Positions 1 to 2,044 of a stretch of 64,000 nucleotides of DNA are shown here, in pieces. This stretch comes from an uncultured Bacilli bacterium (GTDB lineage: Bacteria; Bacillota_I; Bacilli_A; RF39; UBA660), in NCBI GenBank assembly GCA_947630055.1, contig CANRGA010000001.1:10195-74194 (forward strand), read 5' to 3'. Each line of letters starts with the position of its first letter. Positions within the stretch are counted from its first letter, which is position 1. The notes beneath the pieces were generated by a model that ran no database searches, was not told where the DNA came from, and saw only the letters and a list, made by a program, of their open reading frames with translations. A program made the position numbers and the translations under genes.

Positions 1-92
1 GTCAAATAAAATAGCCGAAATCTTTTTAAATTACTTTCATCATAACCTTTACCATAATCTTGTGCTAATTTTTCTTTACTTTTCTTAATTAA
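1..92 (-). pseudogene. 5'-truncated DUF1016/YhcG fragment running off the window edge
   Basis: Reverse translation reads ..LIKKSKEKLAQDYGKGYDESNLKRFRLFYL.., which matches the LIKKWGEKLSQEYGKNY..FYL segment of the neighbouring copies. It is joined directly to the stop codon of copy A. Confidence 0.5.
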
Positions 93-1030
93 TTTGCTTT
101 TGTTTTATTATTTACTAATTTATAAGTTGTGACATAAATATCTGTATTAGTAGTAAATTCAATTACTAATTTATTTTTCTTTTTAACTATAAGTATACCA
201 ATTGTTTTATTATTAGAATTTTCTTTTATATATTTATCGATATAGCTGACATAAAATTGTAATTTTCCAATATCTTCTGGTTTTATCTCTTTTGATTTTA
301 TTTCTACTACTACATAGGCATTTAATTTAATGTTAAAAAATAATAAATCAATTCTATAAGCTTTATTGTTAATTTTTAGTTTATATTCATGCCCAACAAG
401 AGCAAAACCTATACCTAATTCCATAAATCTATTTTCAACATTATTTATTATTTTTTTGTGAATAGTTGCTTCATCTAGTTTTGAAGTATTTTCCTCAATA
501 TTAATAATAATTGGATCTTTTATCATATCTTCAATGGTTAAGCTATTATTTTGAGTATCTGTGATTAATTTAACATTATTTTTATCGGCATAAGTAAGTC
601 TTTCAAATGATTTACTTTTTATTTCATTTCTTAACTCTCTAACAGATAAATTATTAAGTATAACTTGGTTTATATAATAGTTTCGTTCATTTTCATTTTT
701 TATTGAAAGTAATTCTATTATGTGACTCCACATCAATTGTCTCAACGATGTTGAGACAATTGGAAACATAAGATAAAACTGCTTAAACCTAAATAAATTA
801 ACTCTATTATAATTCTTACCGTATTCTTGTGATAATTTTTCGCCCCACTTCTTAATTAAATTATCACCATACTTAGCCCTAGATGCTCCACTTTGAGCTT
901 CAACTAATAATCTCCCTATTTCATAATATCCTTTTAATCTTTCTTCATTATCAACCATTCTTCTTACTCTTGAACTACTCTCAATATCAATTATGACATT
1001 TTCCACTTTTTTTAGTGTTTCATTATTCAT
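89..1030 (-). CDS. DUF1016/YhcG-family PDDEXK nuclease-like protein (copy A, apparently intact, 313 aa)
   Basis: Internal Met MNNETLKKVEN is preceded by GGGAGAGAATGT, the same 5' context as copy C. The C-terminus has a PDDEXK-like core (IDLLFFN...YVVVEIKSKE). The 392-aa track ORF is a read-through fusion with the upstream wreck. Confidence 0.8.
   Translation of the reverse strand: MNNETLKKVENVIIDIESSSRVRRMVDNEERLKGYYEIGRLLVEAQSGASRAKYGDNLIKKWGEKLSQEYGKNYNRVNLFRFKQFYLMFPIVSTSLRQLMWSHIIELLSIKNENERNYYINQVILNNLSVRELRNEIKSKSFERLTYADKNNVKLITDTQNNSLTIEDMIKDPIIINIEENTSKLDEATIHKKIINNVENRFMELGIGFALVGHEYKLKINNKAYRIDLLFFNIKLNAYVVVEIKSKEIKPEDIGKLQFYVSYIDKYIKENSNNKTIGILIVKKKNKLVIEFTTNTDIYVTTYKLVNNKTKAN
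734..762. repeat. Perfect 13-bp-arm palindrome inside DUF1016 copy A
   Basis: caattgtctcaac-gat-gttgagacaattg; encodes PIVSTSLRQL. Confidence 0.95.
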
Positions 1031-1440
1031 ACATTCTCTCCCTTCTTTAATTAATTCACAACTTGATAAATTATTAAGTATTATTTGATTAATATAATAA
1101 TTTCTTTTATTCTCATCTTTTATTGGTAATAACAATACAATTTGAGTCCAACTTAATTGCGAAATCAGTGATTTCGCAATTGGAAATTCTAAATAATATT
1201 GCCGTATTAATTCTAAATTTCTACTGCTATAATTTTTACCATATTCTAAAGATAATTTTTTCCCCATTTCTTAATTAGGTTTTCGCCATATTTTGCTCTA
1301 GATTCTCCACCTTGAGCATTTACTAGTAATCTACTTATTTCATAATATCCTTTTAACCTTTCTTCATTATCAAACCATCATTCTTACTCTTGAACTACTC
1401 TCAATTTCTATTATGACATTTTCTACTTTTCTAATTTACT
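1031..1440 (-). pseudogene. DUF1016/YhcG wreck (copy B): N-terminal domain only, frameshifted, fused to the 5' UTR of copy A
   Basis: Encodes ..KKLSLEYGKNYSSRNLELIRQYYLEFPIAKSLISQLSWTQ..NYYINQIILNNLS, then runs into copy A's RBS region. The sequence at 1268-1440 is homologous to the N-terminus of copies A and C but out of frame. Confidence 0.6.
1155..1181. repeat. Perfect 13-bp-arm palindrome inside DUF1016 copy B
   Basis: aattgcgaaatca-g-tgatttcgcaatt; encodes PIAKSLISQL. Confidence 0.95.
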
Positions 1441-1456
1441 TTTGTTCTATTATTTA

Positions 1457-2044
1457 CTAATTTATTCTTTTGCGAATAGTGACTTCATCTAATGCAGAAA
1501 TATCTTCATCAACATTAATAATAATAGGATCTTTAATCATATCTTCAAGAGTTAAGTTATTATCTTTAATATCAGTTATTAACTTAATATTATTTTTATC
1601 GGCGTAAGATAATCTTTCATAAGATTTACTTTTTATTTCATTACTAAGTTCCCTTACTGATAAATTATTAAGTATAACTTGGTTAATATAATAATTTCTT
1701 TCATTTTCGTTTTTAATAAATAATAATAATCTAAAATGACTCCATGTTAATTGCGTACACACTGTGTACGCAATTGGAAAAATCAAATAAAATCTACGAT
1801 ATAATTCCAAATTTCTTGTTCCATAATTCTTACCGTATTCTTGTGATAATTTTTCGCCCCACTTCTTAATTAAATTATCACCATACTTAGCCCTAGATGC
1901 TCCACCTTGGGCTTCAACTAATAATCTACCTATTTCATGATATCCTTTTAACCTTTCTTCATTATCAACCATTCTTCTTACTCTTGAACTACTTTCAATA
2001 TCAATTATGATATTTTCAACTTTTTTTAATGTTTCATTATTCAT
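1457..2044 (-). pseudogene. DUF1016/YhcG copy C, truncated (195 aa; nuclease domain deleted)
   Basis: The N-terminal 190 aa are nearly identical to copy A. The ORF ends before the PDDEXK core. The sequence after the stop (about 1430-1456) resembles the 3' end of copy A, which implies an internal deletion. Confidence 0.7.
1749..1775. repeat. Perfect 13-bp-arm palindrome inside DUF1016 copy C
   Basis: aattgcgtacaca-c-tgtgtacgcaatt; encodes PIAYTVCTQL. Confidence 0.95.

Follow-up and report, generated by a model that had tools for sequence, protein, structure and literature searches.

Head-to-tail DUF1016/YhcG nuclease genes at the edge of a pilus and secretion island of an uncultured Bacilli bacterium, and a palindrome with co-varying arms inside every copy

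A DUF1016/YhcG array of intact, truncated and decayed copies

We analyzed a stretch of 64,000 nt of contig CANRGA010000001.1 from an uncultured Bacilli bacterium (hereafter the window; G+C ~25%), the left end of which carries an array of genes and gene fragments of the DUF1016/YhcG nuclease family, next to an island composed of a Tad/Flp-like pilus operon, an M26 IgA-protease-like gene and a type IV secretion system (T4SS). Six pieces of the family are present (Table 1). Four of them form the array on the minus strand, in the 5′ to 3′ order C, B, A, E downstream of an AT-rich leader, while the other two, F and D, lie on the plus strand to either side of the protease gene. All six carry, at the same codon position, a perfect inverted repeat of 27-29 bp whose inner bases differ between the copies, always in a compensated manner. 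This palindrome, conserved inside every copy and not remarked on in the first-pass annotation of the window, is the most unusual feature of the locus.

Copy A matches the Pfam families DUF1016_N (E = 7.6e-33, 114 bits, with a gathering score of 32.8) and YhcG_C (E = 1.3e-40), and retains the catalytic residues of the nuclease motif, D228...E243-x-K245; A and D also match the PADLOC profile hidden Markov models for PDC-S02 (E = 6.4e-76 and 8.5e-70, respectively). In C, the sequence past residue ~195 joins directly to a C-terminal tail of ~11 codons and a stop, showing that the nuclease domain was lost by internal deletion, and an intact version of this gene (P0010, 98.5% DNA identity up to position 1446) exists in the sister strain represented by locus L003. 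The last residues of B, the wreck of a third paralogue, are ..NNLSS, and its fusion point lies ~25 nt before the ATG of A. Its tail is in frame with A, producing a chimeric open reading frame (ORF) of 392 aa (89-1267, minus strand) that gene callers have recorded as one protein in ENA assemblies; exact look-ups of the 313-aa A and the 319-aa D proteins found neither on record in the collection searched. The variable segment of B matches those of the intact genes L018 and P0002. Unlike A, C and D, which score above the DUF1016_N cut-off, B, E and F are fragments only.

The left end of the array could be followed beyond the window, since two contigs (L001 and L002) that are 100% identical to window positions 1-1590 and 1-1563 extend it leftward; both break inside the array. 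In L001, E is a fragment of 270 nt that stays open for ~90 codons (LIKK.. to ..SFERLSY) and stops before a DUF6020 gene, so that it is truncated at both ends and is not, as the first-pass annotation had it, a 5′-truncated gene running off the window. To its left, both contigs carry DUF6020, glycosyltransferase, two-component, LytR and LtaS genes, a neighbourhood resembling ordinary chromosome. A megablast search of plasmids with window positions 1-2300 gave no match. F is the weakest call among the six pieces: two peptide remnants are left (..LRWSHYLKL.. and ..IKDPYVLEFLDI..), and its likeness to the more canonical subfamily comes through ..KDPYVLEFLDI... D probably begins with the ATG at 21369 (MTEEK), matching the homologue P0092. 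Apart from E, the six pieces and their states of decay agree with the first-pass annotation, at or near the positions it gave.

Table 1. Features of the DUF1016/YhcG copies, their palindromes and the surrounding island (positions in the window)
Feature	Position	Strand	Basis or content
E: partial DUF1016_N fragment, residues ~59-148	1-92, continuing left	-	starts LIKK, overlapping the stop codon of A
A: intact DUF1016/YhcG gene, 313 aa, N-terminal helical domain and PD-(D/E)XK nuclease	89-1030	-	Pfam
Palindrome of A	734-762		CAATTGTCTCAAC-ATC-GTTGAGACAATTG, encoding P-I-V-S-T-S-L-R-Q-L
B: N-domain wreck of a third paralogue, residues ~6-140	1031-1456	-	tblastn 1043-1435, two frame changes and stops
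Palindrome of B	1155-1181		AATTGCGAAATCA[C/G]TGATTTCGCAATT (written out: AATTGCGAAATCACTGATTTCGCAATT), perfect despite the broken frame
C: intact 195-aa ORF, DUF1016_N and linker only	1457-2044	-	good ribosome-binding site; DUF1016_N E 1.8e-31, 109.5 bits
Palindrome of C	1749-1775		AATTGCGTACACA[G/C]TGTGTACGCAATT (written out: AATTGCGTACACAGTGTGTACGCAATT)
AT-rich leader of the array	2045-2266		leader of the minus-strand array, divergent from the pilus-like operon
17-nt block in the array leader	2108-2124	-	AAATAAAAGGAAATTAG
Tad/Flp-like pilus operon	2267-13544		
Inserted module, 8.85 kb	13545-22397	+	terminator hairpin, F, M26 IgA-protease-like gene, D
F: small wreck of the more canonical DUF1016 subfamily	13590-13735	+	two short peptide matches and palindrome
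Palindrome of F	13604-13620		GTTCAACAGTGTTGAAC
M26 IgA-protease-like gene, 2472 aa	13756-21174		
D: intact DUF1016/YhcG gene, both domains	21354-22313	+	DUF1016_N 107 bits
Palindrome of D	21641-21667		AAATGTGAACACAGTGTGTTCACAATT
T4SS	22398-38636		pilin, TcpE/PrgI, VirB4, M23/lysozyme, VirD4; housekeeping genes beyond

When the copies are aligned, the DNA identities amount to 83% for A and C, 75% for A and D, 77% for A and B, 80% for B and C, and 81% for B and D. Judged by these values, the copies are old paralogues rather than fresh duplicates, and yet they share long exact tracts. Between A and C, the first 210 nt are 93-100% identical, with an exact tract of 83 nt, the next ~120 nt only 60-66%, and the remainder 80-93%; A and D share an exact tract of 51 nt directly after this hypervariable segment of ~120 nt. 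Moreover, the protein P0002, from another sample, is a three-way mosaic that begins like C, continues with a variable segment of the B type and carries the nuclease domain of the A type. Together, the exact tracts and the mosaic show that gene conversion between the paralogues is recent and recurrent. The array also differs between sister strains. In L003, from a third sample and with flanks 98.5-99% identical to the window, two intact genes are followed by E, namely P0010 and P0001, the latter being A at 99% identity; in the window, B occupies the place of the nuclease domain of P0010, giving C, B and A where L003 has two genes. The recombination hot spot that the first-pass annotation had proposed is thus supported by the exact tracts, by P0002 and by the polymorphism in L003, while its suggestion that the family seeds the acquisition of modules found no support.

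A scan of species-representative genomes returned 79 loci with DUF1016 genes, all from metagenome-assembled genomes (MAGs) of uncultured gut Bacilli (sources rabbit, "BRZ" and chicken; Ca. Onthousia, Onthocola and Caccenecus; "uncultured Mycoplasma/Tenericutes"), with several loci per MAG (5 or more) and many contigs that end inside the gene. Mapping of the pieces by tblastn covered 82 loci and the window, that is, 85 clusters, and gave 159 units: 116 full-length copies (frameshifted in 7 cases), 32 internal fragments and 11 units cut by contig ends. Single units make up 43 of the clusters; the other 42 are arrays of 2-6 units, and every unit is head to tail with its neighbours. Full copies within arrays are only 16-30 nt apart, which gives no support to a duplicating unit larger than the ORF, as had been proposed from a block shared upstream of C and D. 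This block is real, but it is a match of 17 nt that recurs with one extra A in the leader of D (21241-21259, plus strand; 0.01 chance matches expected in the window), and it is also found ~50 nt upstream of the array in L005; beyond these 17-19 nt, the regions upstream of C and D share no homology. Pieces with an N-domain only that end at residues ~189-202 recur (C in the window, L014, L035), in-frame N-N-nuclease fusions were found in P0011 and P0113, and the breakpoints of the fragments are heterogeneous, which fits birth-and-death turnover through deletion and gene conversion. The array in the window is one case of a general habit of DUF1016 genes in this lineage. At L004 (188-2974), three intact tandem genes lie 25 nt apart, beside Y-family polymerase/YolD, DnaB/DnaC-like and serine recombinase genes, in what looks like a mobile element.

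A palindrome at a fixed position in the gene

The palindromes of the window (Table 1) follow the consensus (C)AATTG-N6-C-A[C/G]T-G-N6′-CAATT(G), which encodes P-I-x-x-[TSAP]-[LV]-x-x-Q-L, and form the centre of the ~120-nt (~40-codon) hypervariable segment. In an AlphaFold2 model (predicted local distance difference test score, pLDDT, 73.9), the encoded peptide forms the loop that connects helices 76-88 and 101-107. Folded as single strands, the palindromes of the window have z-scores of -2.2 to -6.4. Away from the DUF1016 copies, the 64-kb window holds no palindrome of this type.

To this we added the clade loci, giving a set of 118 copies with 98 distinct 29-mers. In 114 of the 118 copies, the distance from the centre of symmetry to the R codon of the downstream RNYYIN motif is exactly 63 nt. 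All 13 possible pairs are complementary in 57 copies, 12 in 24 and 11 in 22, whereas 11 or more of the 13 pairs are reached at 8 of ~100,800 other positions in these genes. Among 81 distinct sequences, 92.7% of the cells are paired, compared with 62.2% in column shuffles (none of 500 reached the observed value), and changes on both sides account for 277 cells, compared with 95 in the shuffles; in slid controls, with partners shifted by 1-3 columns, 30-40% of the cells are paired. The arms co-vary at the level of nucleotides, also at synonymous sites, and three or four types of base pair are in use at each of positions 3-8 from the centre. The central base is C in 56 copies and G in 52, and complementarity usually extends to the base beside it. 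G:U pairs are nearly absent (~12 of 972 cells, ~1.2%), and G:T mismatches are no commoner than A:C.

In the reading frame, the third codon position of one arm pairs with the second codon position of the other and the two are still complementary, so the symmetry cannot be a by-product of the protein sequence; this pairing, together with the persistence of palindromes outside ORFs described below, rules out an origin at the protein level. A search of window positions 1-2400 against Rfam, with E values up to 1, gave no match, and the copies display neither the match to a curated model nor the G:U-tolerant covariation that mark a structured RNA family. A stimulator of -1 frameshifting was considered and rejected, because reading of the sequences revealed no conserved slippery heptamer upstream, and so was an operator-in-promoter arrangement, since copies of the palindrome or of its half-sites in promoters or elsewhere in the window are chance k-mers only.

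The palindrome is found far outside the clade. We examined eight plasmid-borne DUF1016 genes from five phyla (hosts Clostridium, Butyrivibrio, Runella, Shewanella, Acaryochloris, Curtobacterium, Citrobacter and Pseudomonas), with 25-33% amino acid identity to A by tblastn, and in seven of them the top palindrome of the whole gene lies at the homologous site (in Curtobacterium, AGTTGTCCAACAG-C-CTGTTGGACAACT). These eight were pooled with 80 genes from viral contigs and E. coli yhcG, which left 63 that are distinct. Within the 40 nt preceding an invariant W codon, the best centre falls at exactly -18 nt in 49 of the 63, and at least 10 of 12 pairs are formed in 39 of the 63, compared with 8 of 1199 background windows; Bacillota, Bacteroidota, Cyanobacteriota, Actinomycetota and Pseudomonadota all have the palindrome at the homologous site. 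The yhcG gene of E. coli K-12 (NC_000913.3; L172 7828-8955) contains three tandem in-frame units of 39 nt, with centres at nt 315, 354 and 393; each unit forms a palindrome of 27 bp, and the outer arms differ between the three (AATTCACCAGACAATGTCTGGCGAATT, AATTCCGCAGACACCGTCTGCAGAATT and GATTTGGCAGACGCTGTCTGCCAAATC). In a DUF1016 gene of a viral contig (L165, 1581 and 1689), a second perfect palindrome, GATTGTGTCGACAGTGTCGACACAATT, accompanies the one at the canonical site and lies in the helix before a putative helix-turn-helix (HTH).

The palindrome also outlives the ORF. It has kept its full symmetry in the frameshifted B as well as in heavily decayed fragments of L065 and L083, and it occurs as stand-alone copies in AT-rich non-coding DNA adjoining DUF1016 genes, where the palindromes are spaced by 43-190 nt: ~13 different ones within 1 kb upstream of a full copy in L053 (5380-6380), nine downstream of the gene in L006 (3248-3804), and seven in the orthologous array of L014 (7000-7330). 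A few stand-alone palindromes retain eroded coding flanks (..FYLEFPIVHALRAQF..), indicating that gene fragments gave rise to at least some of them. The flanks of L006 and L014 are identical for the most part, and the two arrays differ by entire palindrome units; one palindrome differs at ~8 of 17 arm positions and is nonetheless near-symmetric at either locus, with 11 of 12 pairs in L006 and a single bulged base in L014. An insert of ~800 bp in L006 (2416-3250), absent from L014, lies between two stand-alone palindromes and a duplicated spacer; its ORF looks AbiEi-like by eye. Of 26 strict stand-alone palindromes, 14 share an arm with an intact gene at another locus and one with the gene at the same locus. 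The idea that they are extra cognate sites of the neighbouring gene was rejected on this count (1 of 26 in the clade), although L168, with an identical 27-mer inside the gene and again just past its stop codon, and L141, with copies on both sides of the gene, would fit it.

Junctions of the island and neighbouring features

The pilus operon, protease gene and T4SS are as the first-pass annotation described them, and it was right about DUF1016 copies at three junctions. Its claim that a copy marks every junction is too strong, as none lies at the right border near 38.7 kb or after VirB4, and the large number of copies per genome weakens it in any case. Related islands carry copies at the start of the pilus operon, as in the window (L003, L007 and L014, the last with a copy 90% identical to D), directly after VirB4 (L025, L054 and L055), where the window has a gap of 125 nt and no copy, and after the T4 pilin gene (L065, L072 and L073). 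Close relatives of D (88-90% at the amino acid level) adjoin the pilus operon in L014 and L006. The 8.85-kb module with F, the protease gene and D sits between the last gene of the pilus operon and the T4 pilin promoter, whereas in L065, L072 and L073 the last pilus gene runs directly into this promoter (empty site AATGGTATTTTCTTGACATA). DUF1016 copies thus sit where gene content changes, at junctions that vary between related genomes, with no sign that they cause those changes.

A duplication of TATTT at the 8.85-kb insertion is possible, which in AT-rich DNA is weak evidence. On the 3′ side of the T4 pilin gene, AATAGTGTCAACAAAGTTAACACTATT is followed by a T-run (22789-22815); this palindrome looks like the ordinary terminator of that gene and was not counted as a DUF1016 relic, though it could still be one, as relatives have a DUF1016 gene and stand-alone palindromes at the same junction. 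On a Clostridium estertheticum plasmid, a DUF1016 gene lies between hsdM and hsdS, and plasmids of Shewanella and Citrobacter have a tyrosine integrase gene that overlaps with the start codon of DUF1016 (plasmid loci L084, L087 and L090). Pfam scans of the 30 ORFs between 2267 and 44518 with a length of 100 aa or more (excluding D and three nested antisense ORFs) identified no IntI integrase or Y1/RAYT transposase, and these ORFs are pilus, protease, T4SS and housekeeping genes only. Two further repeats were seen in the window: tandem repeats of 36, 72, 108 and 321 nt at 53566-55318, inside an ORF of 856 aa (53291-55861), with D/N/C-rich units (..DLNCDTNNDDKC..), and an intergenic 50-nt unit present twice at 92% identity (59458-59558), relatively GC-rich for this genome (ATGTTTCTCGCTATCGGATGGCGCGAG...).

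Readings of the array and of the palindrome

The array itself is familiar in kind; the embedded palindrome is the feature for which we found no description in the literature searched. The literature on DUF1016, YhcG and PDC-S02, as far as it was consulted, gave no account of an intragenic palindrome, nor any mention of a hypervariable segment or of tandem arrays with partial copies. We have great confidence in the descriptive picture, that is, an array shaped by gene conversion and a palindrome with co-varying arms that outlives the ORF, as well as in selection of the palindrome at the level of DNA. The explanation that we prefer would add a mechanism to it. The locus is a birth-and-death array of head-to-tail DUF1016/YhcG paralogues at the edge of the pilus/T4SS island, in which paralogues exchange the conserved blocks flanking the hypervariable segment through gene conversion, while copies are gained, lost and truncated between sister strains, B, E and F probably being remnants left by this turnover. 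The palindrome would be a cis-acting site in double-stranded or cruciform DNA, rather than an RNA hairpin or a by-product of the protein, and DUF1016 proteins would bind or cut it, so that each gene carries a site for its own family. Paralogues would differ in the site as well as in the adjacent helices, and the hypervariable flanking helices may set specificity; C, with its N-domain only, may act as a nuclease-free binder. Taken as a whole, this explanation stands at an even balance in our judgment.

That the palindrome would be a site for DUF1016 proteins is suggested by the fact that palindrome and protein are inseparable in every phylum sampled. That it is the protein's own site we put forward tentatively, as a possibility short of an even chance, and several points count against it. 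YhcG of E. coli is one protein with three different palindromes, and stand-alone palindromes rarely match that of the adjoining gene; both argue against a simple rule of one protein, one site. The similarity of the arms tracks that of the upstream helix (r = 0.43, compared with 0.27 for control segments), but this correlation cannot be interpreted, because physical linkage could explain it. Fragment breakpoints are not at the palindrome. Nor is a role in defence proven: a tested PDC-S02 gene gave no protection to E. coli B against T4, T5 or T7 (bioRxiv 10.1101/2024.09.26.614923).

Three other explanations were considered. Under plain pseudogene decay, duplicates of a dispensable nuclease would erode by random deletion, the fragments and the N-only ORF would have no role, and the palindrome would be either functionless or an mRNA hairpin acting in stability, pausing or autoregulation. 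The frameshifts and stops of B, the heterogeneous breakpoints with fragments of all kinds in the clade, and the good single-strand folding of the hairpins all agree with such erosion. It does not explain, however, why copies that are not recent duplicates share exact tracts of 51-83 nt, why N-only fragments repeatedly end in the same stretch of residues, or why E has stayed open for ~90 codons at 25% GC (a chance of ~3e-4, estimated from base composition). Non-coding relic palindromes remain perfect while their flanks erode, and the scarcity of G:U pairs and the symmetry that usually reaches the central base pair are unlike selection at the level of RNA; Rfam, too, has no match. We regard decay as improbable. 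A second reading is diversification from silent cassettes. By analogy with pilE/pilS or vlsE, one or two expressed genes (A, C) would be rewritten by gene conversion from the promoterless B, E and relic units, the partial copies storing alternative hypervariable segments that diversify the specificity of the nuclease. The locus does have partial promoterless copies, a variable segment between long conserved blocks, and mosaic expressed alleles, among them P0002, which joins a B-type cassette to an A-type nuclease domain. Residues 85-105 are covered by 21 of 30 internal fragments, compared with 9 of 30 for the nuclease domain, E is an open fragment of cassette size, and 14 of the 26 stand-alone palindromes have a matching counterpart in an intact gene at another place. 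Yet stand-alone relics have lost the flanking homology that conversion requires, many fragments lack the cassette, no dedicated recombinase was seen among the ORFs from 2267 to 44.5 kb, and the data are consensus contigs only. This reading, too, appears unlikely to us.

A selfish gene of the homing type would invade intergenic junctions of mobile elements, cleave the palindrome and be copied during repair, with arrays and flanking wrecks as the scars of repeated invasions; this comes close to the first-pass suggestion of a gene that travels with modules or seeds them. Presence/absence polymorphism at intergenic sites of otherwise syntenic islands, the mark of such genes, was indeed found, genomes hold many copies and contigs end in the gene, and the family is found in plasmids, viral contigs and type I restriction-modification (R-M) operons and beside integrases, with palindromes flanking the gene in L141 and L168. 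But the putative target lies inside the gene itself, so that self-cleavage would have to be prevented, the junctions show no consistent target-site sequence, the breakpoints are away from the palindromes, and F and D, which bracket the protease module, come from different subfamilies. We give homing a low probability.

Membership in the DUF1016/YhcG family (PF17761 and PF06250; PDC-S02) is plain, as both Pfam domains are recognized in A and D with scores well over the thresholds and the PD-(D/E)XK motif is retained; members described elsewhere likewise reside on mobile elements, and other taxa also have them within type I R-M operons. The literature, as far as it was consulted, treats the family only as predicted nucleases, encoded by mobile elements or at type I R-M or phase-variable loci. 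The N-domain is all-helical, and its residues ~64-138 weakly resemble the HTH region of Spo0J/ParB, below threshold; fold searches returned matches to the nuclease domain only and none to the N-domain, leaving the ParB-HTH idea unconfirmed. ParB and KorB bind palindromes as dimers, the KorB site OB being an odd palindrome with a G/C centre, and in B. subtilis a parS site lies inside spo0J. DUF1016 proteins differ in that they have neither the CTPase nor the ParB N-domain, their partner domain is a nuclease, and their palindrome is hypervariable and encoded by the variable part of the protein itself.

With pilE/pilS, vlsE and the hsdS shufflons, the array shares a variable segment between conserved blocks, promoterless partial copies beside expressed genes, and mosaic alleles, whereas DUF1016 copies are all direct, without an invertase, and the flanking homology is missing from many relics. 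REP/RAYT elements and integron attC sites also have palindromes with conserved outer bases and variable inner arms, arrayed beside the gene of a DNA-cutting enzyme; the DUF1016 palindromes, in contrast, are not dispersed, and their primary copy is inside the ORF of the enzyme. The free-standing homing endonuclease genes of phages, such as seg/mob of T4, are, similarly, multi-copy nuclease genes variably present between conserved genes, but their family and architecture differ, and DUF1016 genes have no defined target site.

YhcG/DUF1016 is a very widespread family without known function, common on plasmids, phages, integrative and conjugative elements and R-M loci, and is listed as a candidate for defence. 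A strictly positioned palindrome, found from Actinomycetota to E. coli K-12, offers a concrete and now testable handle on the function of YhcG, and it also accounts for the arrays of DUF1016 genes at island junctions and for the assemblies that break in these genes. A protein acting on the palindrome of its own gene would be an unusual way to link the specificity of a nuclease to the gene that encodes it. A bolder proposal, which we consider rather unlikely though less so than decay, silent cassettes or homing, is that DUF1016/YhcG is a self-referential system of nuclease and site, in which the palindrome encoded in the DNA-binding domain would be the site of recognition or cleavage by that same protein. 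Cutting followed by fold-back or templated repair would keep the arms symmetric and yet changeable, and would drive the turnover of cassettes, the tandem arrays, the "graveyards" of relic palindromes and the movement of the gene between the junctions of mobile elements. If this holds, the system would represent a novel type of genetic element, selfish or diversifying, that occurs in E. coli K-12 as well as in all phyla sampled.

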